64,000 nucleotides of DNA from contig CAXWPH010000010.1 in assembly GCA_963666055.2 (NCBI GenBank), forward strand, positions 1 to 64,000. Direction: 5' to 3'. Below, piece by piece: positions 1,732-19,912 of this stretch. The stretch is from Acidobacteriota bacterium (GTDB taxonomy: Bacteria > Acidobacteriota > UBA890 > WLXD01). Position numbers and translations under genes: made by a program. The first letter of the stretch is position 1; every line of letters starts with the position of its first letter. Under the pieces are notes generated by a model. That model ran no database searches. It was given only the letters and a program-made list of their open reading frames with translations, and was not told the DNA's origin.

Positions 1732-1798
1732 GGCGTTGCCGATACGGTGTAGGGGAGTGCCTGAAGCCTATCGCTGGGGCACGCGAGGGTCCACGGGA
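1732..1798 (-). promoter_or_regulatory. Kinase leader repeat L1 with sigma70-like promoter
   Basis: TGGACC (1793-1788), 17 bp, TAGGCT (1770-1765), 33 bp, ATG. Confidence 0.75.
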
Positions 1799-1931
1799 AG
1801 CACCTTCAGGGGCCTCGCCAGCATTAACCGGCCTGGTTTCCAGTTTGGGAAGGGAGAGTCCCATACATAGGGAGACGCATTACTCGACGCAGATCACGCT
1901 GCTTGCATGAGTCACTCACCGTCCCCCGCCG

Positions 1932-2563
1932 TTGCCCGAACCCTTGCTGCGCCACCTGGCAGAGTGCCGTGATCCCCTGGCTGACGAACACCCCTGGTAC
2001 GTATTGCTGGAGACCACCGCGACGACGCCCGACAATGATCTGACAGGGACCATGGAAGACATGCTCGGCGCTGCCGCCGAGGCCGGCGTGGTGCTCGACG
2101 CCACCATCGCCGCCAATGCCGAACAGGCCCGCGGCCTGTGGCGAATTCGCGAGGGCATCGCCGAGGTCCAGAAGCACGAGGGCGCCAGCATCAAGCACGA
2201 CGTCTCGGGTCGCCGACTTCGTGGTCGAGGCCACGGCGGCGGTCGAGGCCCACCTGCCCGGCGCCCGGCCCCTGGCCTTCGGCCACCTGGGCGACGGCAA
2301 TATCCACTTCAACACCGCCCAGCCCATCGGCGCCGACCCGGCCGAATTCCTCGGCCATTGGGGCGACTTCAACCGCCTGGTCCACGACATCGTCCAGAAC
2401 ATGGGCGGCAGCTTCAGCGCCGAACACGGCATCGGCCGCATGCGCCGCGGCGAGTCTCGAACACTATAAAAGCGAGCTTGAACTGAACCTCATGCGCCGC
2501 ATCAAGGGAGTCATTGACCCCCAGGGCCTGATGAATCCCGGCAAGGTGCTGGACGGGGCCTAG
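1932..2563 (+). pseudogene. FAD-linked oxidase (D-2-hydroxyacid dehydrogenase-like) C-terminal fragment, frameshifted
   Basis: LWRIREGI..SIKHDVS / FGHLGDGNIHFN..GGSFSAEHGIG / IKGVIDPQGLMNPGKVL split over three frames; 5' part missing. Confidence 0.85.
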
Positions 2564-2919
2564 GCCTCGTCGATGACGACGTTTTCACCACTCAGGAAGA
2601 CCGCCACCACACAGCCCTTGGGCGAGTGGGATGAATGGCTGGTGCCCGGCGCGAAGCTGACGAAATCGCCGGCCTTGAAGACCGTGCCGTCATCGTCGAC
2701 CAGTTCGCCCTCGATCATCAGGAAGTGCTCGCCGCCGGTGTGGATATGGGGTACCGAAACGCCACCGGGCTCGAACTTGACCATGAAACAGCCGATGCCG
2801 GTGGCCTCGTCGACCCGCACCGGCAGCCAGGTCATGGTCTCGGCCGATATGCCATAGCGGTCATAGGTCTCGTAGGCCGTGTTTTTCGTATCGACGATGA
2901 TGCGGTCAGTCTCGCTCAT
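2560..2919 (-). CDS. ChrR-like cupin domain protein
   Basis: FEPGGVSVPHIHTGGEHFLMIEGEL..GDFVSFAPGTSHSSHSPKGC. Confidence 0.8.
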   Translation of the reverse strand: MSETDRIIVDTKNTAYETYDRYGISAETMTWLPVRVDEATGIGCFMVKFEPGGVSVPHIHTGGEHFLMIEGELVDDDGTVFKAGDFVSFAPGTSHSSHSPKGCVVAVFLSGENVVIDEA

Positions 2920-2963
2920 GGCGCCTTGCTCCCTGTTTGCAGCTTCATTCTCGCGCATTCCCC

Positions 2964-4472
2964 TCACATGTCTCGCCAATCGCCGGACTGCTCGAAGGCG
3001 TGGGCGGCGCGGTAGATCGTCGATTCCTCGAAGTGGCGTCCGATCAGCATCATGCCGACGGGGAGACCCTCGCTCATTCCACAGGGGACGGACATGGCAG
3101 GGTGATGGGTGTTGTTGAAGGGCATCGTGTTGGTTGCCGGACCGAAGGCCAGATCGAGACTGGTCGCGGGATCGACATCTGCCGGTGGCAGCGGAGAGGC
3201 CTTCATCGGGGTCGTGGGCATCAGAAGAAGATCCACTTTCGTCAAGGCGTCGTCGTATTCGGCACGCAGCCGCCGGACCTGGTTCGTGCCCTTCGCCACG
3301 TAGTGGTACCCATGTTCCCGTCTGAGGAACTCGGTGGCCATCAGCATGATCTTGACCGTCTCGGGCAGCTCGTTCGCGCGTTGACGCCAGGCGCGCTGGG
3401 CATCGAGGAAACTCACCACAGCGGGATCGAGCCGGTTGGTCAGGCAGCCGTCACTGTGGAACATCACATCGATGGACTGTTGGATCACGGCTGTCCAGAT
3501 CGCCGGACCCAGCCGGTGCATGGGGACCGGGACCTCGCTTACGATGGCACCCATTTTGCCCAGACTCTCAGCGGCGCTTCGCACCTTGGCATCGACGTCG
3601 GGCTCCGAGGTTTCATGACCAAATCCCTCCGTGACCACACCAACCCGTAGGCCCGAAATGCCCTGCCCCGGGGATTCCGTGTAGTCGTCGGTGCGCGGGT
3701 TGTATTGACGGCTGTCCAGACCGTCGGCCCCGGCGATCACCTCCAGCAGCAGCGCGTTGTCGGTGACATTGGCTGTCATCGGCCCGACGTGATCGATGAC
3801 CGGTCCCATGCCGAGGATTCCGGTGTAGGGAACCAGCCCGTGCGTCGGCTTCATGCCGTAGATGCCGCAGAAGGAGGAAGGCATGCGGATCGAGCCACCC
3901 TGGTCGCAACCGATGGCCAGGTCTGCCTCGCCTCCGGCGACGAGGGCCGCGCTGCCCGACGAAGAACCGCCCGCCGAGTGGGCCGGGTTGTGCGGGTTCT
4001 GCACCGGGCCGGAATCGCTGGTGTGGCTCCCTCCGGAGAAGCAGAAAGCCTCGCAGACGGCCTTGCCGGTGAGCGTGCCTCCGGCATCGAGGATGCGAGT
4101 GACGACGGTGGCGTCTACAGGTGGTATGTACCCGTCGAGGATGTTTGTGCCGTCCATCAGCGGTACGCCAGCGACGAAGACGTTGTCCTTGATGGCCACG
4201 GTGCGACCCTTGAGCTTGCCGCTCTCAGAACCGGCGATATCCGTCTTGACGTACCAGGCGTTGAAGGGGTTGTCGGCCGGCGCGGGCCGTTCCCAGTTTC
4301 GTTCGGCCGCACCGGGCTGGACCTCGTCGTCCGGAAGCTCATCCAGGACGGCGTTGCCGGCGATGGAACCCTCGACCAGGTCGCGGTAGAGCGCGGCTTG
4401 TTCGTCGGAGACCGACATGCCGAAATCTCGAATGATTTCTGCGATCTGTTCGCGTGTCGGAGTCTTCAGCAT
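2964..4472 (-). CDS. Amidase (amidase signature family)
   Basis: VAIKDN, AGGSSSGSAA, DQGGSIRMPSSFCG motifs; 502 aa. Confidence 0.95.
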   Translation of the reverse strand: MLKTPTREQIAEIIRDFGMSVSDEQAALYRDLVEGSIAGNAVLDELPDDEVQPGAAERNWERPAPADNPFNAWYVKTDIAGSESGKLKGRTVAIKDNVFVAGVPLMDGTNILDGYIPPVDATVVTRILDAGGTLTGKAVCEAFCFSGGSHTSDSGPVQNPHNPAHSAGGSSSGSAALVAGGEADLAIGCDQGGSIRMPSSFCGIYGMKPTHGLVPYTGILGMGPVIDHVGPMTANVTDNALLLEVIAGADGLDSRQYNPRTDDYTESPGQGISGLRVGVVTEGFGHETSEPDVDAKVRSAAESLGKMGAIVSEVPVPMHRLGPAIWTAVIQQSIDVMFHSDGCLTNRLDPAVVSFLDAQRAWRQRANELPETVKIMLMATEFLRREHGYHYVAKGTNQVRRLRAEYDDALTKVDLLLMPTTPMKASPLPPADVDPATSLDLAFGPATNTMPFNNTHHPAMSVPCGMSEGLPVGMMLIGRHFEESTIYRAAHAFEQSGDWRDM

Positions 4473-4523
4473 GTTCCCTTCGCGGTTTGCATCACAACGC
4501 TGGATCTATCTCCCAACGGTGAC

Positions 4524-4583
4524 GAAGCAGGGTGGGTGAGCGCCTGAAGCGTATCGTTAGGGCACGTAGGGGTCCACGGGAGA
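4524..4583 (-). promoter_or_regulatory. Kinase leader repeat L2, directly upstream of the amidase
   Basis: TGGACC (4576-4571), 17 bp, TACGCT (4553-4548); no kinase coding sequence follows. Confidence 0.7.
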
Positions 4584-4589
4584 GGCCGT

Positions 4590-4670
4590 TTCGCAAGACT
4601 CGGCTGAGCGCGCTACGGGTCCGTCGGCACGAGCCGGTTCAGGTCGTCGAACCAGTTGGTGACCAGCGTC
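4590..4670 (-). repeat. Kinase C-terminal tail plus trailer repeat T1
   Basis: Encodes TLVTNWFDDLNRLVPTDP*; followed by the conserved trailer (plus strand tcgcaagactcggctgagcgcg). Confidence 0.85.
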
Positions 4671-5589
4671 ACATGGCCACTGCCGGTCTGGCTGCTCTGG
4701 CCGGTGTACACTTCGTTTGTACCGCTGAAGTTCGATTCGTATGCCAAGAGCTCGCCATCGTGCGACCATCGGCATTCTGGTAGCGCCGCCCTCGCTCTTT
4801 CGCGAGGCACTTCTTCGACATCCACTGCAACTGAGCGGGCAGGTCAGGGTTGGTGTCGCCGAGCGGCTGCGGCTCCTCGTCGGCGATCTTATGCAGGATG
4901 TCCAACATGCTCTTGCCGGCGAACGGCTGCCGACCGCTGACCATCTCGTAGAGCACGCAGCCGAAGGCGAACAGGTCGGCCCGGTGATCGATCTTGTCGG
5001 AGCCCTCAACCTGCTCCGGGGCCATGTAGCCAGCCGTGCCCATCACCTGACCGGCCACCGTGCCCATCATCGTGGGTGACTGCGTTGCACCACCTGGTGA
5101 GCCCGCCCCCGCCACCTCGGTCAGCTTCGCCAGGCCGAAGTCGAGCACCTTGGCGTGGCCTTCCTTGGTGACGAAGATGTTCTCCGGCTTCAGATCGCGG
5201 TGGATGATTCCGGCGGCATGTGCTGCTGCCAGTGCTTCGGCGATCTCGGTGGCTAAGCCGAGCGCCTTCTTGAGCGGCAGCGCACCCTTGTCCAGCGGCT
5301 CCCGCAGCGTGTCTCCCTCCAGGTACTCCTGCACCATGAAGTGGGTGTCGCCTTCCGTGCCGATGTCGTGAACGACCGCGATGTGCGGGTGGTTCAGCGC
5401 GGCGGCGGCACGAGCCTCCTGCTCGAAGCGGGCGAGCCGCTCGGGGTCAGAGGCGAACTCGGCGGGCAGCACCTTGATGGCCACCTTGCGGCCCAGGCGC
5501 GTGTCCTGCGCCAGGTACACCTCTCCCATGCCGCCCGCGCCGAGCTGCTCGGTGATTTCGTAGGGACCTAGTTTGGTGCCGGGTTCCAT
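4669..5589 (-). pseudogene. Ser/Thr (Hanks) kinase with an intact catalytic domain and the TM/beta-propeller region internally deleted
   Basis: [32 protein letters not shown] are all present. After ~4765 it jumps to a TolB/PD40-like scrap (WSHDGELLAYESNFSGTNEVY) and the tail in another frame. Confidence 0.85.
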
Positions 5590-5657
5590 AGCGCTGCCAG
5601 AGCGGGGTGGGTGAGCGCCTGAAGCCTATCGCTGGGGCACGCGAGGGTCCACGGGAG
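5590..5657 (-). promoter_or_regulatory. Kinase leader repeat L3 (native position in front of the kinase)
   Basis: TGGACC (5651-5646), 17 bp, TAGGCT (5628-5623), 33 bp, ATG 5589. Confidence 0.75.
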
Positions 5658-6076
5658 AGGCGCTGGAGGATCGGACAGAAACTGGTCCCCCAAAACGCGC
5701 CCGAGCACATCCCTCGGGGGAGTGGGACGCAGCTCGCAGGTAACGGGAGGCGACGGGCCGATGATGGAGCTGGCCTTTCTCGCGGCGGACCCGACCGACT
5801 ACTACACGCAGTCCGCGAAAGCCAACGAGCAGATGGGCGAGGCGTTGCAGAACATCCGTGCCCGGGCGGGAGCGCTCTGCCGGCGGATCGAGTCGACCAA
5901 CCACACGATCCGGCGCGACCTCGCGTATCAGCTGCCCGAATAGAGGCAGCGGGTGTGCTGTATGAAGGAAATCACCGGAGCAGTATTGGCGTACAGAAGG
6001 TGGTCGCGCCGGTGATCAAACTGCCTTGGGGTGAATGACCGGGAGGACGCCATTGCACCGTTCCATTGTACGGATC

Positions 6077-6130
6077 TGCGCCGAGCTGTTCGGTGATCTC
6101 GTAGGGGCCTAGTTTGGTGCCGGGTTCCAT
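6077..6130 (-). pseudogene. Kinase N-terminal stub (18 codons)
   Basis: [18 protein letters not shown], then unrelated sequence. Confidence 0.85.
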
Positions 6131-6197
6131 GGCGCTGCCAGACAGGGGTGGGTGAGCGCCTGAAGCCTATCGCCGGAGCGTGCGAGATCCAACGGGG
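6131..6197 (-). promoter_or_regulatory. Kinase leader repeat L4 (subtype B)
   Basis: TTGGAT (6192-6187), 17 bp, TAGGCT (6169-6164), 33 bp, ATG 6130. Confidence 0.7.
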
Positions 6198-6516
6198 CGG
6201 GTGTCGGCAGCGTTCCAGCATCCCCTTCGACGGATGAGGGTGCAGAATCGTGAAGGTCGGTTACTGACCACCCCCACGGCAGCGAGCGGACCGTTGACTG
6301 GGCCGCCACCCGTGACGCAACCGCGCCGATTTACCGAAAAGTAAACGGCGTAGAGCCCCCGCCGACGTTCCAGGGGCGTGGGGGGTCGAAACGAGCGACT
6401 CACGGCCCCTACGGGCGCTTGTAGGGACGCAGCGGCTGGCGCTACCGGGACGGAGCACTGTCTTGCAGTCGATGCTGTCTGATGGTGGCGCTGTCGAGGC
6501 TCACCCGAAGGGCGCG

Positions 6517-6577
6517 CTACCGGTCCGTCGGCACGAGCCGCTTCAGCTCGTCGAACCAGTTGGCGACCAGAACCATG
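6517..6577 (-). repeat. Kinase C-terminal tail repeat T2
   Basis: Encodes MVLVANWFDELKRLVPTDR*. Confidence 0.85.
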
Positions 6578-6633
6578 TCGGGGATCTCGTAGGGTTGCTG
6601 GGCTCAAGACGTGGCACTAACCGCAGGGTCAGG

Positions 6634-8115
6634 TCATTGCGTCTCGTTGAACAGAATCACGTACCGATCCGCATTGATACTCGCGTCCCACATCACGACA
6701 AGCAGATCGATTCTACCGTCCCCATTTGCATCGAGAGGAGTGATCTGGAATCCGATGTCGCCCGGGACCGCGAGCTGCTCGAACCGGCCCTTGCCGAGGT
6801 TCCTGAAGATCGTGCCCGACATACCGCGTTCGCCGGGCAGAACGATGTCCGGCCAGCCATCGTTGTCCAGATCGACGATGCTGATGCTTCCCCCGGTGTG
6901 GCCGTCGGCTTCGAGACTCTGGGGCAACCACTTCTTGGTCACGTCCCTGAACCGACCCTTGCCGCGGTTTTGCAGAAATTGCAGGTGCGGGTTCGGGGGA
7001 CCTCGACCACCCGACGTCTCCGTCGCCACGAGCAAGTCGGGGTCGCCATCCATGTCCAGGTCGGCGCACACGGGTGCGCTCCCGTACTCACTGTTGACGC
7101 CGTTGGGCGACAGCGGCAGCGTTATCTTCGAGTAGTTGAAGTTACCGAACCCGTCGTTCTCCAGAATCTGCGTGCGGCCCGCGAGCTTGGGGGCGTCAAA
7201 ATCGGAGGGGTGGGGGCTGCCGACGAGGTCCTGGTCACCGTCAGCGTCGACGTCACAGAACACTACCTTCGGCAATATGCAATCCTCGCTTCCGCGTGCA
7301 CACGGGCGAGAGTCCGGCGAGTTCGGAAACGGTCCGGGCAGCCTGTCGTTCTCGGCCCGAAAACCGCCGCTTCCATCGTTGATCAGTAGGCGCGGACCCA
7401 ACTCGGCGCGTTCGGGATCCGTTGATCGCCAGCTTCCTGGCCAGTTGGCATCCCAGATATCCAGGTCGCCGTCCCCGTCGACATCCGCTGCGGCAGCGTG
7501 GTGCGTGAAGGCCTGGTCATACCTGGGATAGGGCTCCCCGCGCGCGGTCCGATACCTACCGTCCGGCCTGGACAGCAGGAGCAGGTTGGCGGCCCCGGGG
7601 GCCGGGTCAGCCGGGTCCTTGCCGGTCTGCGGAAAGTAGATGTCGGGGACACCGTCGCCGTTGAAGTCGTGAATCATCGGTTGCTCATTACTCATTTGGT
7701 CAATCCTGCCCGGCTTCCCGGCCAACCACTTGCGCTTTCTCGCCCGGCTGAAGACGCCGGTCCCGTCGTTTTCCCAGACGGACAGCGCGGCCTTGTAGGC
7801 GACGCTCGGATCCGCGTAAAAGGTGACCTCATGTAGCAGAACATCGGTATCGCCGTCCTGGTCGATATCGATGACCTGCTGCCAGACACCTGGTTGATCC
7901 AAGGTGAGGCCGATACTGGTTCTGACCATTCGCCATTGCAGTGGTCCGCTGGCCACCCTGCGTGGCTGTGTCTGGTCGGTTGATGCGAGAGGGCCTGGGG
8001 CTGCCGACATCCCCGCGCTCGCGAGAACGGGAGCAAGTATCGCGACGGTGATCCAACCGAGGTGCACTCTGCGCCGTGGATTACTCGAAGCGAGGCCAGC
8101 AGGGCGGAGCTTCAT
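6634..8115 (-). CDS. Secreted FG-GAP/VCBS repeat protein
   Basis: Signal peptide; repeated DxDxDGDxD motifs ([36 protein letters not shown]). Confidence 0.85.
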
Positions 8116-8294
8116 GGTCCTCCTAGAGAACTTGATCGAGTAAGCTGCCTAGGACCGCTCGCGAAGTCGTCCGATAGTACCTTGATGGCGATATCACGAT
8201 CCAGCGTCGTGTCGCGTGCTCGGTACACCTCGCCCATCCCGCCTGCACCGAGCGGGGCGAGGATCTCGTAGTGGCCGAGGGTCTTGCCGATCAT
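8112..8294 (-). pseudogene. Ser/Thr kinase N-terminal stub (different paralog)
   Basis: [48 protein letters not shown]; its stop overlaps the ATG of the FG-GAP gene (ATGA). Confidence 0.85.
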
Positions 8295-8304
8295 CCTCTT
8301 CAAC

Positions 8305-10836
8305 TCACTGGATGTAGCCAAGTGCTCGAAGAGTCCGTAGCTGCTCGGAAGTCAGCGGCGACTCCTCGCCCGGCGTGAACTGCTGCGCCAGCAACTGGTG
8401 CGCCTCGAACTGCGCCTCAAGGAAAGCGGTGTAGTGCTCGACTAGGTCAGGCCGCTCCTCATGCAGGCTGCTCAAGGCGTGCGGGTCGTTCCACAGGTCG
8501 TAGAGCAGCAGGGGGACGGGCCGGCGCTCCTCTTCCGGGGTCTCCGGGTGCGGGTTTATCTCGAGCGATGCCCCCCAACGCCCATCGACCACCTCGATGC
8601 GACCGCGGAACTCGCCCGTGTCGCCATCCACCCAGAACTCGTCGAGGATGACGGGGCGCGGCTCCCACCCTGCCTCCCCCAGCAGCAACGGCGCCAGGGA
8701 CTGTCCCTGCATCACTTCCGGCATCGACAGATCCGCCAGGTCTAGGATGGTCGGCAGCAGGTCGATCATGGAGACGGGCTGGCTGAACCGATGGCCTGGA
8801 GCAATGCGCCCCGGCCAGACCACGATCAGCGGGATGCGGGTCGTGCCGGACCTGACCATGGGAGCCCCAGGAAGCCGATGGAACAAAGGCCCGCGGGGCG
8901 GTAGGGAATCACGCATGAGGAGGCCGTAGTCCGCCGAGCCCGCCCCGACGCCGTGATCCGCCGCGACGATCAGGAGGGTGTGCTCCCACTCGCCGGCTGC
9001 CTTGAGCCGGGCCATGAGCCGGCCAAGCTGGTAGTCCTGGTGCGCCATCGTTTCGTCGTGCAGGTCCCGTTGGGCGGTGACGAACGGCACCCGGCTGATG
9101 CCGGCCTGCTCAAACCCCTTTCCCCCCCGCCAGAAGACCCCTGATGCCTGGAGGAGGCGGTGCCATTCCTCGACGATCTGGCGGCGGTTAGGGCTGATGA
9201 AGAGGCCCGCGAAAGGAGGGAGCGGCGTGTGCGACCTATGCACGTCGGTCGTCTGAAAATGCACCCAGTACGGCTCGCTGGGGTACGCCTCCCGCCATGC
9301 CCAGAAGTTCTCATGGAGCTCCACGGAGGACTTGGACTCGGGCGTGACCCCGGCTTCTCGGAACACATCGACGCCACGTTCGAGGCTGCTCAACCTCCCA
9401 GCGTTCCCGTTGGATGTGAACACGGCAGTCTGGTAGCCGGCCCGGTGCATGTGCTGAGCCATGGTCGGCGCATTGTCCGGGATCACATTGAACCCGTTCT
9501 TGAAACCGCCCAGCACGCTGTGTTGCAACGAGGTCATGAAGGAGGCCGTGGAGGGTCGGGTCCAGCTGGAATTGCTGTACGCACGCTCGAAGATCGCACC
9601 CTCGGCGGCCAGCCGCTCGAGGTTCGGCGTCGTGCGACGATTGTAGCCGTAGACGCTCATGTAATCGGCACCACCGCCGTCGATGATGTAGAAGATGATG
9701 TTCGGCTTGTCGGTGGTGCGCGCGCCGCTGATTGTCGGCGCAGCCCACAAAGCGACCCTCCCTTCGGCTTCGGACTCGGCCTCCAAGCCGAGCGTCACCG
9801 TCTGGCCCGCAAAGTCGGCCAGATCCACCGAACGCTGGCCCCAGCCCTTCTTGACCGCATAGCGCTCCTCGAACAGCGCGGTCGGTTCACCACCCCCGGC
9901 ACCATCAGGGATCGCCGTGACCCGGAAGGTCACGGGCACGTCCTCACGCAAGACACCCATGGCGAAGTCGAGCCGGCCCGCCTCCGGGATCTTCACCCGA
10001 TACTCCACGCGCCCCGGCGTGTGCGTATACAGAGCCTGCCGATAGATGCGGTTGCGGATTTCAGTGCGCGAGGCCGCGCCCGCGTTGGCGTAGTTAGCCA
10101 CCTTCGGGATCAGCGTGATGGAAAGAATGTCGATGCTGGCCACATCAGTGGCCGCGAACAACAGGCCGATCTCCCGAATCGATCCCTCCGGTGGCGGATC
10201 CCCCCAAAAGTAATCCAGCCGCAGCTGGTAGGTCTGCACCGTACCGTCGCTTACAACAGGCGCCTCATCGCCTCCGTGCTCAAATGGATTGGGGCCGCTT
10301 GCATCCGTACCGGTCCCCTCTCGCCTGTTGAAGCCGATGAAGAAGTCGCTGACATCATCGGAGGTGCGAGCACGCACCACGAGGTGCGCCAGATCCTCGT
10401 AGTTCCAATCGGGCACCTCGAGAACCAGGCCGCCCCTTGGGTTGCCGTTCGGATTCCTCGTACCGTCCGTTAGCGTGACGCGCAGCGCGTCGTCGAGCTG
10501 CGTGACCTCGACCGGATCGTTCGTGGGGTTCCACGGGACTACCGGCTTCCAGTCCTCCTGGGGCTCGTCGAAGTGCCATTCCATGGCGTCCGGAGCGTCT
10601 GCGGGGACCTCGGAGCCCACGATGGTGGCCACGTCGAAGTGTTCCTCAAGGTGGAGGGGAACCTCGGCGGTCAGCGGTGACGGGCCGGGGTCAAGCCCTG
10701 TGCAACCCGTCGTTAGGAGGATCGCGAGGAGCAGCGCTGCAAGCGAGTGGCACCAGTCGAGACGAACCTCTCCCATGCCGCCAGCACCGAGCTGCTCGGT
10801 GATTTCGTAGGGGCCTAGTTTGGTGCCGGGTTCCAT
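8305..10836 (-). CDS. Sulfatase-like lipoprotein whose first 24 residues are kinase-derived
   Basis: [32 protein letters not shown] and LRALGYIQ motifs; N-terminus [24 protein letters not shown] followed by a hydrophobic stretch and lipobox LTTGC. Confidence 0.85.
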
Positions 10837-10903
10837 GGCGCTTCCACAGGGATGTGGGGGAACGCCGGAAGCCTATCGCCGGGGCGGGCGAGGGTCCACG
10901 GAG
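10837..10903 (-). promoter_or_regulatory. Kinase leader repeat L5
   Basis: TGGACC (10898-10893), 17 bp, TAGGCT (10875-10870), 33 bp, ATG 10836. Confidence 0.75.
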
Positions 10904-11145
10904 AGGCACGGCCCCCGCAACGGTGCCTAGTGGTAGAGCCGGGCTGTTGTGCCGTCTCGGGGACGCACCCTGCGCCGCGTTCATCGGTGTCCCACGCATA
11001 CACCTCGTTGTCGCCGTCGCCGTCGATCAATCGAGGGCCTCCTGCCGCGGGGGCAATGATCCCGCAATGAACTCTGCGTTGTCGATGGTCTGGTCTTGTT
11101 CTACCCTCCGGCCGGCAGGATCAGGTCCCAGCACCAGGAGAACCT

Positions 11146-13113
11146 ATGCAACATAACCTTGTTGCTCTCCGTATCGTGATCGTCGCCAGCCTCACGCTTG
11201 CTACCTACGCCCCGGCAGAACAGACGGGCTCTGCAGCCTCCGGTAACTGGTCTCGGTACGCCGCCGACCAGGCGGGCACCAAGTACACGCCACTCGACGG
11301 CATCAACGCCAAGAACTTCGACCATCTCGAGATCGCCTGGCGCTGGGACACGGTCGATCAGCCTATCCTCGACGCCAACCCCGATATCTGGACCAACCGC
11401 AACGAAGCCACGCCGCTGGCCATCGACGGTGTCCTTTACACCACGACCTCGCTGAACCAAGCCGCGGCCATCGACGGCGCCACCGGCAAAACCCTGTGGA
11501 CGTTCGATCCCGGCACCTGGCGTGGCGGCTCGCCTGCCAGCCTCGGGTTCATTCACCGCGGCCTGGCGCTCTGGGAGCAAGACAACGGCGACAAGTGGCT
11601 CGTTTACGGCACGAGCGATGCGTACATGATCGCTCTCGACGCCGGCACCGGATCTCCGGTGCCGACGTTCGGCGACAACGGCCGCATCGACCTGACGCAG
11701 GGTTTGCGCCGACCGATCAAGCGCGAGTTCTACGGCGTTAACTCCCCGCCGATGATCTGCGGCGGCAACATCGTTATCGGCTCCGCCGTCTGGGACCTCA
11801 TCGCCGAGGACCTGGCGCCCCCGGGCGACGTGCGTGGCATCAACCCCGCCACCGGAGCCACCGCTTGGACCTTCGAGTCGATCCCGCAGGGACCGCTGGC
11901 CGAGGAAACCTGGGGCGCCGATTCGTGGCAGACGTACGGCAACACCAACGTGTGGTCGTTCATGAGCTGCGACGAGGAGCTCGGCCTCGTGTACCTGCCG
12001 TTCGGCACGCCGACGAGCGACTACTACGGCGGCGGCCGGCCCGGCGACAACCTCTACGCGGAGTCGATTGTCGCGGTGCGCGCCGATACCGGCGAGAAGG
12101 CGTGGCACTTCCAGGGCGTGCATCACGGCATCTGGGATTACGATTTCCCCGCCGCGCCGATCCTGGTCGACATCACGGTCGAGGGTCGCGAGATCAAGGC
12201 GCTCGTGCAGATCTCCAAGCAGGCCTTCGCCTACGTGCTTGACCGCGAAACCGGCGAGCCGGTGTGGCCGATCGAGGAGCGACCTGTGCCGCAGGAGCCG
12301 ACCATGCCCGGCGAGTTCCTGTCCCCGACGCAGCCGTTTCCCACCAAGCCGGCCGCCTTCGACCGGCAAGGCATCCTGCGCGACGAGCTCATCGACTTCA
12401 CCCCCGAGCTGCGTGCCGAGGCCGAGCAAATCCTGCAGCAGTGGGACCACGGCCCGCTCTTCACGCCGCTGACACAACGCGGCACACTGATGCTCCCCGG
12501 CTTCATCGGCGGCGCCAGTTGGGCGGGTGCCAGCGTGGATCCGAATTCCGGGATCTTGTATGTGCCCTCGGTAACCCTGCCTACCCTATTGGCGCTGCAG
12601 GAGCCGGCCGGCGAGTCGGCCTACCGTTACCAAATCTCCTTCGACGCGCTACCCGAGGGCCCACAGGGGCTACCGTTTTTCAAGCCGCCCTACGGCCGCG
12701 TTACCGCCATCGACCTGAACACTGGCGAGCACCTGTGGGTGACACCCATGGGGGCCGGCCCCAAGGACCATCCGGCGCTCGCCGGTCTCGAACTCGCCGA
12801 CCTCGGCTCGCCTTACCGCACGTTCCTGGTGCGCACACCGTCGTTGCTGCTGGCCGCCCAGGAGGGCCCGTTCACGGCTCCGTTCCTCTCGGACCGCGGC
12901 AACGCGATCCTGTTGGCCGGGCAGACCGAGGCACCGTCGATCCGGGCGCTGGATCCGGCGACCGGCGAGATCATCGGCGAGGTCCCGCTACCGAACAATG
13001 CAAGCGGAGGCTTTGTGACCTACATCGCCGACGGCGTGCAATACATTGCCGTGCCGATCGGCGGGGCATCGCAGAAGGCAGCGTTGGTGGGGCTGCGGGT
13101 GGAAAGCGAGTAG
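11146..13113 (+). CDS. PQQ-dependent dehydrogenase (quinoprotein glucose/quinate dehydrogenase-like)
   Basis: Signal peptide; NEATPLAIDGVLY, WHFQGVHHGIWDYD, PGFIGGASW, KPPYGRVTAIDLNTGE. Confidence 0.9.
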   Translation: MQHNLVALRIVIVASLTLATYAPAEQTGSAASGNWSRYAADQAGTKYTPLDGINAKNFDHLEIAWRWDTVDQPILDANPDIWTNRNEATPLAIDGVLYTTTSLNQAAAIDGATGKTLWTFDPGTWRGGSPASLGFIHRGLALWEQDNGDKWLVYGTSDAYMIALDAGTGSPVPTFGDNGRIDLTQGLRRPIKREFYGVNSPPMICGGNIVIGSAVWDLIAEDLAPPGDVRGINPATGATAWTFESIPQGPLAEETWGADSWQTYGNTNVWSFMSCDEELGLVYLPFGTPTSDYYGGGRPGDNLYAESIVAVRADTGEKAWHFQGVHHGIWDYDFPAAPILVDITVEGREIKALVQISKQAFAYVLDRETGEPVWPIEERPVPQEPTMPGEFLSPTQPFPTKPAAFDRQGILRDELIDFTPELRAEAEQILQQWDHGPLFTPLTQRGTLMLPGFIGGASWAGASVDPNSGILYVPSVTLPTLLALQEPAGESAYRYQISFDALPEGPQGLPFFKPPYGRVTAIDLNTGEHLWVTPMGAGPKDHPALAGLELADLGSPYRTFLVRTPSLLLAAQEGPFTAPFLSDRGNAILLAGQTEAPSIRALDPATGEIIGEVPLPNNASGGFVTYIADGVQYIAVPIGGASQKAALVGLRVESE

Positions 13114-13154
13114 GGGAAGCCCGGCCCCCGACTAGGCCAATACGAGACGCTTCC

Positions 13155-13210
13155 GAAGCAGGGTGAGCGCCCTGAAGCCTATCGCCGGGGCACGCGAGGG
13201 TCCACGGGAG
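13155..13210 (-). promoter_or_regulatory. Kinase leader repeat L6 (no ATG; faces the 3' end of the PQQ gene)
   Basis: TGGACC (13204-13199), 17 bp, TAGGCT (13181-13176). Confidence 0.7.
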
Positions 13211-13385
13211 ACGCCGGAATGCCGCCGCTCAGCGCCTTTCTAACGTCCGCCGGCACCCAGCCCACCGAAGTGCCTGTCAGGTTGTCGGCGGCCCGTAGCG
13301 GGGCCTTCTCGGGGCTCCTAAGCAGACATATGACTGGTGTCTGCCCCGGCATTGCGGACGAGCGGAATCGAGGGTCGCTGGGTGG

Positions 13386-13535
13386 CTCGCGAGACTCCGC
13401 TGGCGCCGCTACGGGTCCGTCGGCACGGGTCGCTTCAGTTCGTCGAACCAGTTGAGGACGACGTGCAGCTCGGTTTCCCGTCCCGGATTGGTCTCAGCGG
13501 CCCTGATCATGACGAACCGTTCGCCGTCAGGAGCG
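13386..13535 (-). repeat. Kinase C-terminal tail plus trailer repeat T3
   Basis: Encodes APDGERFVMIRAAETNPGRETELHVVLNWFDELKRPVPTDP*; trailer ctcgcgagactccgctggcgccg. Confidence 0.85.
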
Positions 13536-13608
13536 CTTTCCGGAAGGCTGGCAGCAGCCGTTGCCGTTCATCCGGGTCGTCCCGCAGCCGAAGTAGGCTG
13601 ACGCTCCA

Positions 13609-14658
13609 TCAGGGACCGGGTCGGGTCGGACCTGCGGTCGCGCGACGAGCCGACTTGTCGTTGTCGCATGCGTCGCCGATGCCGTCGCCGTCCGAGTCGC
13701 CTTGCTGTGGGTTAACCTGTTGCCGGCAATTGTCCTCGCTATCCGGAATGCCGTCGAGATCGCGGTCGGTTCTCTGCAGCTTCAGGTAACAGGAGGATGC
13801 CTCGTCCTTCTGGCAGGGCTGCTCGGGAATCGTCGAGTCGATGACGGTGTTGACCCGGCGCTGACCGTCCGTCTTTTTGTCGACCTGGCCCGTAGCGACG
13901 CGATGGAAGTGCGCCCGCCAGATGACCTCTGTCGAACCGACGCGGTAGCGCACGGCGACTCCCCCGGAGATCGGATCCTTGTCCCAGTAGGTCAAGCGCT
14001 CGACGCTGAAGCCCATCTGCTCTAGCACGGTGTTGGCATCCTTCACCGGCTTGCCCTTCTGTGTGAGCTTGGCCTTCTTGGTCTCCGGGTCCGAGTGCTG
14101 GCGCTGCGTGCTGCGCGGAGCATCACCGTTGTGGTCGATCTCGTGGGCGAGCGTGGCGATCAGCTTGACGCTGGCCAGCAATTGGCGCGCGGCAGCGACT
14201 CCGCCGATCAGCACCGGCATGTTTTCGCCATCGACCTCGACGCCGGTGTTCAGCGCGTCGATGTCGCCGAGATCGACGCCCAGCAGGGCCTGGTTCTTCT
14301 GTGTCGGTGCGGCCCTGCCGGAGAACACATCGGGATTGTCCCGGGACACCTGGACTTTCAAGCGACCCCGGTGCGTTTCGCACGCCTTGGCCACTTTGGC
14401 TCGCATGTCCTCGGATTTCTGGTATGCATTTTTCAGCGTATCCGCGACGCGCTTCTCGTCCGCGGCTGTGGCCTTGCCTGTGCGCTCGACGGTGACCTTG
14501 CAGTCTCCGAGCTCGAACACCGTTTTCCGGTCGCTTCGCCGAGCGCCAGTCGATGCAGCTGATTGCGCCTCCGCCGGCCACGGACTGTCGGTCAGCTGCA
14601 CGAGCATCACCGCCATCACTGTCAGTATCGACAGGCGGATCGTCGTCGATGCCCTCAT
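13609..14658 (-). CDS. Secreted protein with an HExxH motif and a thrombospondin type-3 repeat
   Basis: Signal peptide from ATG 14658 (ATGA overlap with the upstream gene); TLAHEIDH; DRDLDGIPDSEDNC..DSDGDGIGDACD. Confidence 0.7.
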   Translation of the reverse strand: MRASTTIRLSILTVMAVMLVQLTDSPWPAEAQSAASTGARRSDRKTVFELGDCKVTVERTGKATAADEKRVADTLKNAYQKSEDMRAKVAKACETHRGRLKVQVSRDNPDVFSGRAAPTQKNQALLGVDLGDIDALNTGVEVDGENMPVLIGGVAAARQLLASVKLIATLAHEIDHNGDAPRSTQRQHSDPETKKAKLTQKGKPVKDANTVLEQMGFSVERLTYWDKDPISGGVAVRYRVGSTEVIWRAHFHRVATGQVDKKTDGQRRVNTVIDSTIPEQPCQKDEASSCYLKLQRTDRDLDGIPDSEDNCRQQVNPQQGDSDGDGIGDACDNDKSARRATAGPTRPGP

Positions 14659-15248
14659 GGTTGCACGATCTCGAAGATGGCCCAGTGACCGTGATCGTTG
14701 CCCCCGGGTACGCGCACCAACTGATCGAATCCCTCGAGCGCGAAGCCGAGCCAGTGAAAGTCCACGGACGGCAGCATCTCGACCCGGGTGAGGATCTCGA
14801 GCAAGACCGTGCCCCGAGCCGTTGGCCCCAGCGTCACCGGGCCCAGGGGGCTGACGAAGTCTCCGCTCAGCGGAGCACAATGGGCCGCAGCCTGGGCATC
14901 GACACCAAAAGACCTCCCGAACGCCTGGTTGTCGGCCAGTCCGGTGTTCGGGTCCTTGTCGGCATCGATGAAGATGCCGTAGGAGAGCGCCTCAGCGGAG
15001 TTGGTGCATTCCGGCATCTCGGCAAGCTCGATGCGGATCGCCACCTGACGGCCCTTGACCCTGCGGAACTTGTCGATGTTGCCGAGCTCCACGACCTCTG
15101 CCGACAGCACGTCCAGATGGCCCGGCAGCTCCGACGCTCCCGGCGCGGCGACGAGACCGGCCAACGAGACCAGCATCAGAGCCAACACTATCGGCAGCGC
15201 TCGAACCAGCAGTAGTCTCACTTGGGAGCTCCCCCGCGTCGACGTCAT
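14655..15248 (-). CDS. Secreted hypothetical protein
   Basis: 197 aa with a hydrophobic N-terminal signal; YGIFIDADKDPNTG; coupled to the downstream gene. Confidence 0.6.
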   Translation of the reverse strand: MTSTRGSSQVRLLLVRALPIVLALMLVSLAGLVAAPGASELPGHLDVLSAEVVELGNIDKFRRVKGRQVAIRIELAEMPECTNSAEALSYGIFIDADKDPNTGLADNQAFGRSFGVDAQAAAHCAPLSGDFVSPLGPVTLGPTARGTVLLEILTRVEMLPSVDFHWLGFALEGFDQLVRVPGGNDHGHWAIFEIVQP

Positions 15249-15281
15249 GGGTCAGCCTGACGATTCAAGCACGTAGTCCTT

Positions 15282-15400
15282 CATTCGCCCAGCGGTGATG
15301 TGATCGGACGACCTCGGTGCCGGGTTGTATCCCTACCTGTCCGTCGGCGGCACGAGCCGCTTCAGCTCGTCGAACCAGTTGGTGACGAACGCCACCGTTA
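15282..15400 (-). repeat. Kinase tail T4 immediately followed by a degenerate kinase start
   Basis: VAFVTNWFDELKRLVPPTDR* (stop 15333-15335), then ATA CAA CCC GGC ACC GAG GTC...ATCACC..CTGGGCGAA resembling MEPGTK..IT..LGE. Confidence 0.7.
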
Positions 15401-15481
15401 CCGTCGACGGCATCCCCGTGGGTGACGGACGGCACGCTGTTGGCTCGGTAGCGGGTCGGCAGCGGCGCACAGATCGCGACG

Positions 15482-17833
15482 TTATCGAGGCAGGATCCAC
15501 TCCAGGCCCGCGCGGAGTGACCTCGGCGCACCGGGACCAAGGAACCGCGGATCGTCGAACCTTCCAGCGAACACCTCGCCCGGCTCACCGAGAACACCGA
15601 ACGTCTCGTATTCCGCATCCAGCAGGTTGGTCACCGTGGTGTAGAGCGTCACGGTCTCACCGACGCGGTAGGACCCCATCGCGTTGAGCAGCGTGAACCC
15701 GGGTACCGGTGCGAGCAGGTTCGCCTCGTCGCCCCTGAAATACCGCGACGAGGTGGACATCAGGTCCAGCCCGAGCTCCACGGCGTCGCCGACGTTGGCG
15801 GTGAATCCGGCCTTCAGATTGTGCCGCGGTATTCCCGGTATCGCGTCGCCGGGCTCAACGCGGATCTCACCATCGACCGCCAGCGGGTGGTTCGGGCTGG
15901 GGACCGTCAGGACGGTGTCGAAGGTGGGGCTCAGGTGCATGTAATCCACGTGCCAGCCGAAACGACCGGCGATGCGACCGGAGGCGCCGAGCTCGACCCC
16001 GCGGCGCCGCGTCCGGCCGACGTTCTCGAAGAACCCTTGCCCGCGCAGCGGACCGCTGCTGACGAACAGGATGTCGTCGTGGTTGACGCTCTGAAAGACA
16101 ACCGCCCGTAGATCGAGCGACCGCAGCCGCGCTCTGAGCCCCCCCTCCCAGGTTCGCGTCACAACCTGCTCGAGTGCAGGGTCGGCGACGAAACCGTTTG
16201 GAAGGCGGCACGGATCCTCGGGATCGGCGCAGGTCAGCTCGACCGGGGTCGGAGCCCGGGATGACTCCGCGTAGCCTGCGAACACCGATACCCGGCTCGA
16301 AGCCTGGAGCGCCAGGCCGCCGGAGAGGTTGAGCCGACCGAACGAGTGATCCCCGTCCAGGTCATCGCCAAGCTCGTCAAACAGCTCGATCCGGGTGTCG
16401 TTGTAGCGGCCCGACACGGTGAGAGAAACACGAGGGCTCACCGTCAGCATGTCGGTGACGAACAGCCCGAGGTTGCGGTTCCGTGCCTGTAAGTGCACGA
16501 GCGAGTCGAGCCAGACGATGCCGTGTCCCTCCGCGCCGCGATCCGGGGTCAGGGCAGCCAACTCGGATTGCGAGCGGAACCGCGTTCTCCCGGCGTCGTA
16601 GCTGACGCCGACGATCAGCTGATTGTCCCGCTGCAGTATGCCCTCCCGAATCGTCGTCTCGAGAGCCCCGCCATAGCCCCGTTGCCGCGTCTCGCTGGTG
16701 TTGTTGAGCGCGTCGACCGCGTCGGCTCCGAGCGAAACGGGATTCCCGGTCAGGTCCAAGACCGGCGTTCCGCCGTCTTCACCCACGCACAGGTGGTCCA
16801 GGGGCGCGGCCGCCAGGCAAGCCTGGAAGTCGGCCGTATCGGCGTTGAGGGTCTCGACGTTGTTGCGTCGGAAGTACGCGCGTCCCTCCAGCCAGTTCCC
16901 ATCCGCGATCTCACGGCGCGCCCCGACGGAGGCCAGGATCAGCGCGTTGTCGGTGATGTCGGGATGCGTGAACACGGTAGCGCGGTCGATGGTCAGAAGC
17001 TCAATCGGCGCAGCGCCGTTGCCCTGAAGCCGATTGTCTGCGGCAGTCACGCTCGCTTCGACCGCCGTCGCCTCGCCCTGCCAGCTCAACTTTCCGAACA
17101 GCCGCCGAACCAGCGAAGGCGAGAAGTCCCGCCAACCATTCTCCGACATCAGGTCTCCGTTGAGGTAGTAGCCGAGCTTTCCCCGGGCTCCACCGCTCTG
17201 CAGCGAGACTCCGCGCTGGCCAAACGACCCCGCCTCGGCGCGGAGCCCGTGGCTCCGGTCGCTGAAGCCGGACTTGGTGCGTATGGAAACGGAGCCGCCC
17301 AGGGTGTTGAGACCGAACAACGGGTTGGAGCCAGAAAACAGGGCGAGGGCGGAGATCGCCGATAGCGGAACCAGGTCCCAGTGGACCGTGTCGCCGAACA
17401 GCTCGTTGAGCCGCACGCCGTCCTGGTAGACGGACAGTCCCTGAGGCGAACCCAGCAGGGGCGACGCGGCGTACCCGCGGAAGTGGACGTCGGGCTGGAA
17501 GGGATTGCCCTGCGCTTCGACAACGTGCACACCGCCGAGCCCACGACTCATGAGGGCGCTGAGGTTCCGTGCACGAGACCGAGCGATCGCCTCGGCGCCC
17601 ATGGTCTGAACGCTCGCCGCAACCTTGGCGAGGTCGACGCCGGCGCCGATCGGCGTCACGCCGATGACGGTAATCTCGTCGACGACCGTCGGCCGGTCGG
17701 GTTCTTGTTGCGTCTCCCCTTGTTGCCCCTCGGCGATGGACGCCATGCCCCCGAGCAGCGCGACGCCCAGGCCGAGAATCGTCGCGGCCAAGCGTCGAGA
17801 TGAGATGTTCGAGAGGCCGTGATCCCCGCGCAT
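15482..17833 (-). CDS. TonB-dependent receptor
   Basis: Signal peptide, TonB box DEITV, plug GNPFQPDVHFRG..YQDGVRLNE, barrel ending NLLDAEYETFG..GAPRSLRAGLEW; start codon uncertain. Confidence 0.9.
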   Translation of the reverse strand: MRGDHGLSNISSRRLAATILGLGVALLGGMASIAEGQQGETQQEPDRPTVVDEITVIGVTPIGAGVDLAKVAASVQTMGAEAIARSRARNLSALMSRGLGGVHVVEAQGNPFQPDVHFRGYAASPLLGSPQGLSVYQDGVRLNELFGDTVHWDLVPLSAISALALFSGSNPLFGLNTLGGSVSIRTKSGFSDRSHGLRAEAGSFGQRGVSLQSGGARGKLGYYLNGDLMSENGWRDFSPSLVRRLFGKLSWQGEATAVEASVTAADNRLQGNGAAPIELLTIDRATVFTHPDITDNALILASVGARREIADGNWLEGRAYFRRNNVETLNADTADFQACLAAAPLDHLCVGEDGGTPVLDLTGNPVSLGADAVDALNNTSETRQRGYGGALETTIREGILQRDNQLIVGVSYDAGRTRFRSQSELAALTPDRGAEGHGIVWLDSLVHLQARNRNLGLFVTDMLTVSPRVSLTVSGRYNDTRIELFDELGDDLDGDHSFGRLNLSGGLALQASSRVSVFAGYAESSRAPTPVELTCADPEDPCRLPNGFVADPALEQVVTRTWEGGLRARLRSLDLRAVVFQSVNHDDILFVSSGPLRGQGFFENVGRTRRRGVELGASGRIAGRFGWHVDYMHLSPTFDTVLTVPSPNHPLAVDGEIRVEPGDAIPGIPRHNLKAGFTANVGDAVELGLDLMSTSSRYFRGDEANLLAPVPGFTLLNAMGSYRVGETVTLYTTVTNLLDAEYETFGVLGEPGEVFAGRFDDPRFLGPGAPRSLRAGLEWILPR

Positions 17834-18028
17834 CCGTTGCTCGCTCCTCGCCGCGCGAAGTACCGCGCGCTCTGGCGACGGCGAGCAGGTCACCAAAGTC
17901 GCTAGCACCCACGCGGCCGTCCCGGCAAGATTACGCTGTCCGTTGTCACCGTGGGGAGGGAGATGGTTCCGAAAATGTCACCGAGTGCTGGCATACCCTG
18001 CGGTGAGGCCGCTCAGGTGAAGCTTCAG

Positions 18029-18110
18029 CTCGCAAGCTGCGGCTGACGCCGCTACGGGTCCGTCGACACGAGCCGCTCCAACTCGTCGAACCAGTGGGTG
18101 GCCAGCGTCG
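18029..18110 (-). repeat. Kinase C-terminal tail plus trailer repeat T5
   Basis: Encodes PTLATHWFDELERLVSTDP*; trailer ctcgcaagctgcggctgacgccg. Confidence 0.8.
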
Positions 18111-18161
18111 GGGTATCCGGAGGTCGGCATCCGCGCTCAAGGACTAGCGGACCGCGTGCTG

Positions 18162-18350
18162 CTACTGCTGCTGAGGCTCGAGGTCCTTGGTTGCGAGCAG
18201 GACCGCCGCGCCGACCATCATGGCGCCGCAGACCCGGTTAACCCAATTAGAAGAGAGGCTGCGGATGCGATGGGCAGCGTAGCCTGACAACCAGCCCCAT
18301 CCCAGGAGGATTACCCCGTCGACGATCAGGTAGGTGCCGCCCAGAATGCA
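18162..18350 (-). pseudogene. LysE-family exporter C-terminal fragment
   Basis: Manual translation ILGGTYLIVDGVILLGWGWLSG...NWVNRVCGAMMVGAAVLLATKD. Confidence 0.55.
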
Positions 18351-18532
18351 CGACGTGCAGACAAGTGCATGTTGAGCCCGTGAAGCCCAAACGGAGGCGA
18401 TTCGGCCGACTAGAGCTGCTGACGGCCAATCAGCACGACGCCCTGGAAGTGACTGGTATCAAAGGCGATTCTCGGGCCGGGGTCGAAACGGCTCGGTGCA
18501 CGGGGTATTGACGGCCTTCTGTCGAGTCGCCC

Positions 18533-19813
18533 CTACGGGTTGAAGATTGGCGAGGAGGATAGCTGCCGCGCGACCGACTGCAGATCCGGGTTCACCAGAT
18601 CCTCCCCGAAAGACCCGAACCAGGCGATAACCAGGTCACGTCGCGGCGATACGTACAGGAACTGCCCGCCGTAGCCACCCTTGCCGAAGTCGCCGTCCGC
18701 GAACACGACGTCGCATTGCCAGGCGCTGTGGGTCGGAAGCTCGCCGGCGGTTCCGTAGCCCGGTCGGAAGTTGCTTGATGGCGTCAATTCCGGACGGGCG
18801 TCATCGAGAAGCTTCTCGTGGAAAGCGGTTTGTTCCAGGAGGAACAGACCGAGCCGCCCAAGGTCGCGCAGCGTCGTGAAGACCCCTGAGTGGGCAGCCG
18901 CAGCCTGTCCGACAGCATAGTCACCGGAGACGATCAGACCATCGTGCTCGGCGCCGACCTGGACCCAGACCAGCTCCGACAGCAGTTCAGGGTAGGTCTT
19001 GCCGGTGACGACCTCCGCTAGGTACATCAGCACGTTGGTATTGGCAGATGTGTAGTTGTACCTCGTCCCCTGCTCGAAGCCGTGCGGTGCGGTCGCGATG
19101 TGCGATCGAAACGAAACGGGTGAGAGTTTCGGCTGAAACCCGACGCTGCGTTCCATCACCATGAAGCAGGAATCGATATCCCGGTAGGCGTCGTTACTCT
19201 CGTAGCAGCCGGTGCCGGAGGCCATGTCGAGGATGTTGCGAATCGTGATGCCTTCCCACGAGGTACCTTTCAACGCCGGGATGTAGTGATCGATGGTCTG
19301 GGCGACATCGACAAGCCCCCGGTCCTGAAGCTTCGAGATCAACAGACCGGTGATCATCTTGCTGATGCTGAAATAGATGTGCCTATCGTCGGCGCGCATG
19401 TTCACGTAGCGTTCGTAGACGATCTCGCCTCGGTGGAGCACGATGAAGCCATCCACGCGTGGATCGTTGGCGACGTAGTCGTCCAGCGTCACCCGGCCAC
19501 GGTCTCTCGTGTTAACCAGGTATTCAGCGACGTCCCCGCGTGGCGCCTCGGGAAGCTCCAGGATCGGACCACCACGGCGGAGTTCGACGAGTGGAAAGAG
19601 CTTGTCCATGTTGAGGTTGGCATAGCGCGTCAGCTCACCGCCGAACCAACCGGTGACGTAGTCCCAGCGTTCGTGCAGGACCCTGGCCTCGGCGGCCGAA
19701 AAGAGGCCACCGTGGCGCTCCGCGTCCTGCGGTTCGTTCGCCATTGAGACTGGCGTCGTCAGCGACACCAGCATCAGAAGCATGCTGGCAAGAACGATCA
19801 AGCGAGACTTCAT
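18533..19813 (-). CDS. Secreted serine hydrolase, beta-lactamase class C/NylB-like
   Basis: Signal peptide MKSRLIVL..; FSISK (SxxK), LDMASG, YNYTSANT, TLRDLGRLG, GYGGQFLYVSP. Confidence 0.9.
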   Translation of the reverse strand: MKSRLIVLASMLLMLVSLTTPVSMANEPQDAERHGGLFSAAEARVLHERWDYVTGWFGGELTRYANLNMDKLFPLVELRRGGPILELPEAPRGDVAEYLVNTRDRGRVTLDDYVANDPRVDGFIVLHRGEIVYERYVNMRADDRHIYFSISKMITGLLISKLQDRGLVDVAQTIDHYIPALKGTSWEGITIRNILDMASGTGCYESNDAYRDIDSCFMVMERSVGFQPKLSPVSFRSHIATAPHGFEQGTRYNYTSANTNVLMYLAEVVTGKTYPELLSELVWVQVGAEHDGLIVSGDYAVGQAAAAHSGVFTTLRDLGRLGLFLLEQTAFHEKLLDDARPELTPSSNFRPGYGTAGELPTHSAWQCDVVFADGDFGKGGYGGQFLYVSPRRDLVIAWFGSFGEDLVNPDLQSVARQLSSSPIFNP

Positions 19814-19845
19814 TGTTCTGTCTCCAAATCCAGAGGAGATCACTT

Positions 19846-19912
19846 GATGGCGCTACCAGAGGGGGGGTGAGCGCCTGAAGCCTATCGCCAGAGCGTGCGA
19901 GATCCAACGGAG
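19846..19912 (-). promoter_or_regulatory. Kinase leader repeat L7 (subtype B) upstream of the serine hydrolase
   Basis: TTGGAT (19907-19902), 17 bp, TAGGCT (19884-19879); the kinase ATG context is altered to gcgccATC. Confidence 0.7.

Follow-up and report, generated by a model that had tools for sequence, protein, structure and literature searches.

Why does one short sequence stand in front of several unrelated genes in a single bacterial locus? The window analyzed here, the whole stretch of 64,000 nucleotides (64 kb) from contig CAXWPH010000010.1 of an Acidobacteriota bacterium, contains an array in which remnants of serine/threonine kinase genes alternate with genes of other families, called cargo below. 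A leader repeat recurs along this array (copies L1 to L7). The original prediction was that the leader is a portable sigma70-type promoter, that each cassette brings or captures its own copy, and that this explains why the kinase shells are retained. Our analysis of the whole genome suggests that the leader is likely an ordinary inherited promoter within a moderately interesting pattern of gene shuffling anchored at gene ends.

Conservation of the leader repeat

A pattern search of both strands of the window found seven leader matches, all on the minus strand. Each has a −35-like word (TGGACC in five copies, TTGGAT in L4 and L7), a 17-bp spacer and a −10 word (TAGGCT in six copies, TACGCT in L2), exactly as had been described. 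The repeat had been regarded as a seven-copy element, a count that did not survive the genome-wide search. Using a hidden Markov model (HMM) built from the seven window copies, nhmmer identified 81 copies in the 5.7-Mb genome (95.7% complete) at E ≤ 1e-3, of which 80 are distinct; 79 were found at 1e-5 and 91 at 0.1. Contigs from four public runs (at most three samples from two studies, one possibly the window's own source) span L2 and L6 without differences, and at L7 reach the −10 box and not the −35. Because these contigs match at L2, L6 and the −10 box of L7, they argue against the array being an assembly artefact.

Across the 81 copies the first T, the A and the final T of the −10 box are kept in 81, 81 and 80 copies, respectively, and the first T and third G of the −35 box in 80 copies each. 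CG is found at −15/−14 in 79 copies. The inner −10 bases vary (TAGGCT in 63 copies, TACGCT in 9, TAGTCT in 7). The most frequent −35 words are TGGACC (37 copies) and TTGGAT (28 copies), in agreement with the two subtypes recognized in the window, L4/L7 and the rest. A third subtype, known from two copies, keeps 17 bp between TGGATA and TAACTT although its spacer sequence is unrelated.

A box-blind set of 72 kinase starts was also gathered from coding sequence alone. TAnnnT was present 27–41 nt upstream of 63 of the 72 starts, with a −35-like word at 17 bp in 61 of these 63. Fifty-seven starts (56 distinct) were kept by spacer identity. The other 15 were dropped: four had a diverged spacer between intact boxes, one had the −10 alone, another had a broken −10, and for nine the upstream DNA showed little homology or none. 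On the tree of 56 copies, five key bases chosen a priori (−35 T and G; −10 T, A and T) underwent no parsimony changes, whereas the spacer accumulated 8.7 changes per site, the 5′ untranslated region (UTR) 6.4 and third codon positions of the kinase 4.5 (permutation P = 2e-5). The spacer is 17 bp long in all 56 copies, while the UTR measures 33 nt in 42 of them and ranges from 29 to 39 nt (Poisson P = 7e-4 for the contrast in length). Box spacing is thus fixed while spacer sequence varies, and the key box bases are more conserved than their flanks, both as anticipated from the window. The distance of 33 nt from the −10 box to the kinase ATG was confirmed for L1, L3, L4 and L5 and does not extend to the family as a whole. 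Nor is the reported lack of a Shine-Dalgarno (SD) sequence a family trait, since an SD-like 4-mer is found in 17 of the 56 copies and L5 has GGAAG.

Leaderless genes and relatives

In the whole genome TAnnnT peaks 6 nt before the ATG (83 of 4277 starts, compared with 10 for the control ATnnnT). From its position, this peak is the expected signature of leaderless genes, and 70 of 3825 called genes have a TAnnnT box at the leaderless position. The predicted leaderless genes of this genome therefore bear the same box as the leader, on which RNA polymerase would start about 7 nt past TAnnnT. In GC-rich bacteria, promoters of group 1/2 sigma70 factors carry a TANNNT −10 box; a CGN-TANNNT motif, for example, has been mapped in Mycobacterium tuberculosis promoters, with fixed T, A and T, variable inner bases and CGN just upstream, as in the leader (accessible part of PMC3898074). 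That part of the source reports no −35 element, in contrast to the −35-like hexamer conserved here at a fixed 17 bp. The leader differs further from the M. tuberculosis promoters in being multiplied 81-fold and in being a promoter predicted from sequence.

Leader homologues recur throughout the genus, and at least one further genus has them as well. The related genomes G002 and G004 gave 57 matches, of which 30 were retrieved; a kinase start was present in 28 of these, and in 24 of the 28 both boxes lie 17 bp apart. From the 233 matches in five other genera, 30 were retrieved, of which 26 could be parsed; two follow a tail, leaving 24 kinase starts. TAnnnT lies within 51 nt of the start in 17 of the 24 (mean 7.2 and maximum 14 in 1000 shuffles), in several cases 7–10 nt before it. 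A strict IUPAC pattern of the leader gave no matches in five relatives; this pattern is too strict, as can be seen from a leader with a GTG start in genome G007.

Several results weigh against identifying the leader as a promoter. The UTR indels are mostly in C-runs, which inflates the contrast between spacer and UTR lengths. The −35 is weak in the leaderless genes of the host, T.G occurring at 17 bp in 13 of the 70 genes and at 18 bp in 11. A generic scan with the Escherichia coli consensus scored none of the seven window copies, and the leader −35 agrees with that consensus (TTGACA) at just 3–4 of 6 bases. Four contig sets labelled as RNA yielded short pieces with mismatches, of a kind that does not reveal transcription starts.

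The conserved motif could instead be a sigma54 promoter or a regulator-binding site, a reading that we find scarcely credible. The sigma54 spacing GG-N10-GC is found in 36 of 47 TGG-type copies, but it is absent from all 31 TTGG-type copies, and TGGCAY occurs in one of the 81 copies. In addition, 9 and 6 changes were counted at the two GC positions, compared with none in the TAnnnT bases. A sigma54 promoter (TGGCAC-N5-TTGC, GG-N10-GC) was rejected on the absence of this spacing from the TTGG subtype and the single TGGCAY. The conservation and comparative evidence supports the original assignment: the repeat is very probably a sigma70-type promoter, and the promoter itself is likely ordinary, real and functional. 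The 81 natural variants would then supply a footprint from which promoter grammar (T.G-17-TAnnnT) can be read in a lineage represented here only by genome assemblies.

The leader marks the head of a kinase operon

Nine leader copies head full-length open reading frames (ORFs) of at least 870 aa. One of these, on inspection, encodes a Ser/Thr kinase with a PD40 repeat. The recurring unit consists of the leader, a first kinase, an overlapping start, a second kinase and a tail, the last being the 3′ end of the kinase-PD40 coding sequence. No leader precedes any of 33 second-gene-type starts, 21 of which follow a kinase tail and six a sulfatase stop, and because it is absent before all 33, the leader marks the operon head. 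Judged by this arrangement, the leader is likely native to an expanded family of Ser/Thr kinase-PD40 operons, serving as their promoter and 5′ UTR. The 172 heads and tails group into 52 clusters, in which 109 of 120 neighboring head/tail elements are on the same strand.

One kinase array of ~9 kb occurs twice, in inverted orientation and 99.96–100% identical, on contig C8 of the genome (G000:C8, 31297–39996 and 56503–65202); it represents either a recent duplication or an assembly feature. At G000:C2 361836–361874 two tail remnants meet head-to-head at a short inverted junction.

Portability of the promoter and its cargo

The 5′ edge of the leader is sharp, lying 3–6 bp before the −35 box, and the columns upstream are GC-rich and unconserved. 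The end of kinase homology is scattered from 1 to ~2450 nt past the −10 box, at 200 nt or less in 49 of the 81 copies, and 18 of the 81 have no kinase ATG. The 91 tails show a mirror pattern of scattered ends, although 16 of them close full-length genes. In the window, L2 and L7, which stand before the amidase and the beta-lactamase-fold hydrolase, retain no kinase coding sequence, as had been noted, and neither does L6. L6 points head-on at the 3′ end of a convergent pyrroloquinoline quinone (PQQ) dehydrogenase gene.

Does each cargo gene depend on a leader? The model proposed earlier treats the leader as an autonomous, portable promoter cassette that is retained because every cargo gene requires it, much like the promoter early stem-loops (PeSLs) of phages. 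The sharp 5′ edge, the copies without a kinase ATG, the lack of any other TAnnnT between L2 or L7 and their cargo, and the occurrence of in-frame kinase-cargo fusions are in keeping with it, but the 3′ edge is not fixed and L6 together with 13 other of 53 stumps faces a convergent gene. No leader lies directly upstream of the TonB receptor, the FG-GAP protein or the ORFs at 14655 and 13609 in the window, tails are kept without any promoter, and no stem-loop signal was found (UTR mean z −0.75, with 6 of 56 below −2). We consider this model improbable. The claim of one portable promoter per cassette is only partly supported: it agrees with the kinase-less copies L2 and L7, and conflicts with the likely origin of the leader in a kinase operon and with the leaderless cargo. 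Likewise, the promoter may account for shell retention in part; it cannot do so alone, since the 3′ tail, which has no promoter, survives at about the same frequency as the head.

With orientation scored on gene calls made in this analysis, 39 of 53 stumps are followed by a cargo gene in the same orientation, a share above 50% (P = 0.0008). A role for stump promoters in cargo expression has to be weighed against the following. The co-orientation equals the rate for neighbors in the genome (3090 of 4485). Another TAnnnT is present in the gap for 10 of 23 co-oriented cargo genes (control 274 of 523). In 70 copies that are not full-length, key bases changed at 3 of 350 compared with 45 of 2048 invariant kinase sites, a marginal difference (P = 0.05, Poisson; 0.14, Fisher) in a test that left out three indel copies. 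Selection on stump promoters is therefore suggested by these counts rather than demonstrated. Promoter capture is likely a by-product, with stump promoters driving some neighboring foreign genes.

Conserved gene ends and exchange

The stumps might also be products of plain decay. Intact kinases would then have genuine promoters, the stumps would be neutral remains of a dispensable gene family disrupted by mobile elements and deletions, and gene ends would have no special role in moving genes. The scattered breakpoints, several of which adjoin multi-copy elements of insertion sequence (IS) size, the background level of cargo co-orientation and the marginal selection on stump promoters are consistent with such decay. 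It leaves unexplained, however, the same-strand arrays described above and several properties of the gene ends. In a depth profile taken at the DNA level, whose inner segments are confounded by divergence, the genome has 108 matches to the head and 95 to the tail, versus 58 to an inner segment conserved to a similar degree. Silent sites are homogenized at both ends of divergent full-length genes: in the 40 of 45 pairs among ten full-length genes that have divergent propellers, 4-fold silent identity is 0.63 in codons 1–25 and 0.77 in the last 15 codons, compared with 0.43–0.49 for the kinase domain and 0.35 for the propeller of the same pairs. Third positions are also near-fixed in 62 tails; for instance, GTG is found in 61 of 62 compared with 42% usage in the genome, in which codon usage is even. 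Plain decay is consequently judged unlikely, and we infer that the homogenized ends are a trace of repeated homologous exchange at gene ends.

In relatives, the same cargo can lie behind different leader alleles. The cupin region in genome G003 is 96% identical to the window but lies behind a different leader allele and in different flanking DNA, and there a kinase stump joins the last amidase codons through a 10-bp microhomology. Upstream of the cupin gene, GAGAAT in the window (2945–2955) corresponds to TAGAAT in G003 (locus L109, ~1545–1555), so that a −10-like box belonging to the cupin gene itself is intact in G003 alone, where the amidase is gone; this one-base difference is anecdotal. 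Fusions of sulfatase cargo involve several different kinase-start alleles, both here and in G002, and the TonB receptor in G002 is 95% identical without either tail. No long match to the FG-GAP cargo was found in five relatives.

The explanation that we favor, as reasonably probable, is that a native kinase-operon promoter persists on stumps through end-anchored exchange and erosion, with promoter capture as a by-product. DNA possibly taken up by competence would be exchanged by a RecA-type process anchored in head and tail. Kinase interiors would be replaced through homologous recombination where gene ends are conserved, combined with breaks driven by microhomology or mobile elements, while the promoter survives on the remaining stumps, and capture of this promoter may give some cargo expression. 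If the ends serve as exchange adaptors, they would provide a route to cassette-like arrays and to expression of incoming genes without an intact integron, and would account for the many kinase stumps treated as junk by annotation. A stronger version, an enzyme-free, genome-wide cassette system in which heads and tails are adaptors and cargo is expressed at once and passed among loci and strains through RecA alone, is possible but tentative; if true, the chromosome would have its own equivalent of phage PeSLs, and integrons would have an alternative.

The evidence for exchange is tempered by several points. The silent-site pairs are not independent. A resolvable junction was found at just 10 of 112 leaders, and clear microhomology with ordinary cargo in one. 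Several junctions adjoin multi-copy elements, which are IS-like by size and copy number alone. ComEC and DprA are present in the genome, but also in 10 of 14 control genomes.

Comparison with known systems

Integrons are recognized by the integrase IntI, the sites attI and attC and a single promoter, Pc. Like them, the loci described here hold unrelated accessory genes in arrays on one strand, with repeats between the genes. A dedicated site-specific system of this kind, with the leader or tail as recombination site, would also fit the broken integron-integrase fragment in the window (50446–51327, minus strand; TIGR02249, 133 bits with a cutoff of 265) and the GTTRRRY or RYYYAAC core in 30 of 81 leader regions, which matches the G+TTGGAT of one subtype. 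However, tblastn revealed no intact integron integrase in this 95.7% complete genome, and paired RYYYAAC...GTTRRRY occurs in one of 102 tails, whose folding gives no signal (mean z −0.19). The majority subtype has no GTT, the bases before the GTT position are conserved, and scattered breakpoints replace a fixed crossover. With many promoters instead of one Pc as a further difference, such a system is very improbable. Integron attC/IntI was rejected, the integrase being present only as a broken fragment ~30 kb away and attC architecture not being found.

PeSLs of T4-like phages are repeated sigma70-like promoters of <100 bp clustered in variable regions before accessory genes, and are proposed to act as recombination anchor and transcription source (accessible parts of PMC2839356 and PMC4122927). 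They contain a stable stem-loop of terminator or attenuator type, an AT-rich tract before the −35 and an SD at the 3′ end, and mini-circles are excised when their copies recombine. The leader shares with them a repeated sigma70-like promoter upstream of variable genes. It differs in being chromosomal, derived from a protein-coding operon and attached to kinase stumps of variable length. It has no AT-rich tract upstream of the −35, has an SD in a minority of copies, and is accompanied by a second, unrelated anchor, the 3′ tail. A PeSL-type stem-loop was not found in the leader (folding z +0.87 to −1.53), and shuffled sequences formed RNA hairpins as good as those of leader and tail. Among the joints listed from public contigs, which break at repeats, no circular joint was well supported. 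By analogy, the leader may be PeSL-like in its working, as a promoter doubling as anchor, without being a PeSL.

Homology-facilitated illegitimate recombination (HFIR) combines a homologous anchor at one end with a junction of short microhomology at the opposite end (accessible part of PMC6382021). An anchor combined with microhomology gives scattered breakpoints, as observed here with one 10-bp case in a genome that has ComEC and DprA. Further details of HFIR were reportedly given by de Vries and Wackernagel in 2002. The present anchors differ in being paralogous gene ends instead of orthologous loci, and HFIR would here be deduced from junction anatomy. HFIR or a simple deletion fits the 10-bp junction in G003 equally.

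The literature on kinase expansion and promoters in Acidobacteria, promoter capture by gene remnants and conserved-end cassettes, in a search with most subscription journals outside its reach, yielded no description of the element among the papers listed.

Features of the window

The coordinates of the array are listed in Table 1. The distance of 227–228 nt from tail to leader found for T3 and L6 was found again at two other loci.

Table 1. Leader copies, tails and neighboring genes in the 64-kb window
Feature	Position	Strand	Remarks
L1 promoter/leader copy	1732..1796	−	−35 TGGACC 1793–1788; −10 TAGGCT 1770–1765; predicted +1 near 1758; followed by 61-aa kinase stump (ATG 1731), then co-oriented M24 peptidase gene starting at 1293
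Cupin gene, after amidase	2560–2919/2979
Amidase cargo	2964..4472	−	PF01425; NF005565 above cutoff
L2 promoter copy	4523..4579	−	−35 4576–4571; −10 TACGCT 4553–4548; kinase homology stops ~25 nt past −10 box; amidase ATG at 4472
Tail T1	4613..4657	−	Final 15 codons of kinase-PD40 gene; stop 59 nt before L2 −10 box
Truncated Ser/Thr kinase, 306 aa	4669..5589	−	PF00069; without beta-propeller; internally collapsed onto tail T1
L3 promoter/leader copy	5590..5654	−	−35 5651–5646; −10 5628–5623
L4 promoter/leader copy, TTGGAT subtype	6131..6195	−	−35 6192–6187; −10 6169–6164; kinase homology stops at ~codon 18
Tail T2	6517..6561	−	After FG-GAP cargo gene
FG-GAP repeat protein cargo	6634..8115	−	Within second-gene kinase shell; stump ~8161–8289
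Sulfatase fusion, 843 aa	8305..10836	−	First 23–24 kinase codons in frame with PF00884
L5 promoter/leader copy	10837..10901	−	−35 10898–10893; −10 10875–10870
PQQ dehydrogenase gene	11146–13113	+	Convergent with L6
L6 promoter copy	13148..13207	−	No kinase sequence; −35 13204–13199; −10 13181–13176
Tail T3	13409..13453	−	227 nt before L6 −10 box
Tail T4	15333..15380	−
TonB-dependent receptor cargo	15482..17908	−	Between tails T5 and T4; no leader
Tail T5	18052..18096	−
Beta-lactamase-fold serine hydrolase cargo	18533..19843	−	PF00144; ATG 19813 with own GGAG
L7 promoter copy, TTGGAT subtype	19847..19910	−	−35 19907–19902; −10 19884–19879; kinase homology stops at ~+32

A 7-bp word is common, in inverted form, to a leader (5618–5624) and a tail (6540–6546) of the window; by a rough estimate this is likely due to chance, and some leaders break the word. 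Six 8-mers from the leader, the tail and a Chi motif showed no over-representation. Overlapping ORFs in different frames lie opposite to the array at 1932–2563 (plus strand) and are 96% identical in G003. They look like a frameshifted remnant of what is presumably an oxidase gene.

The array end is adjoined by tRNA-Lys/Glu/Thr and several partial tRNA-like pieces (20060–21080), the latter of which look like scars of integrative elements; a search of positions 1–23000 with Rfam returned only two tRNAs. Beyond the tRNAs, a more divergent truncated kinase without a leader is found at 21688–22569 (minus strand), with a 799-aa ORF without a Pfam match upstream of it. A second kinase cluster, on contig C7, likewise adjoins tRNA-Lys/Glu/Thr, and a tRNA call lies within 6 kb of 9 of the 52 kinase head/tail clusters.

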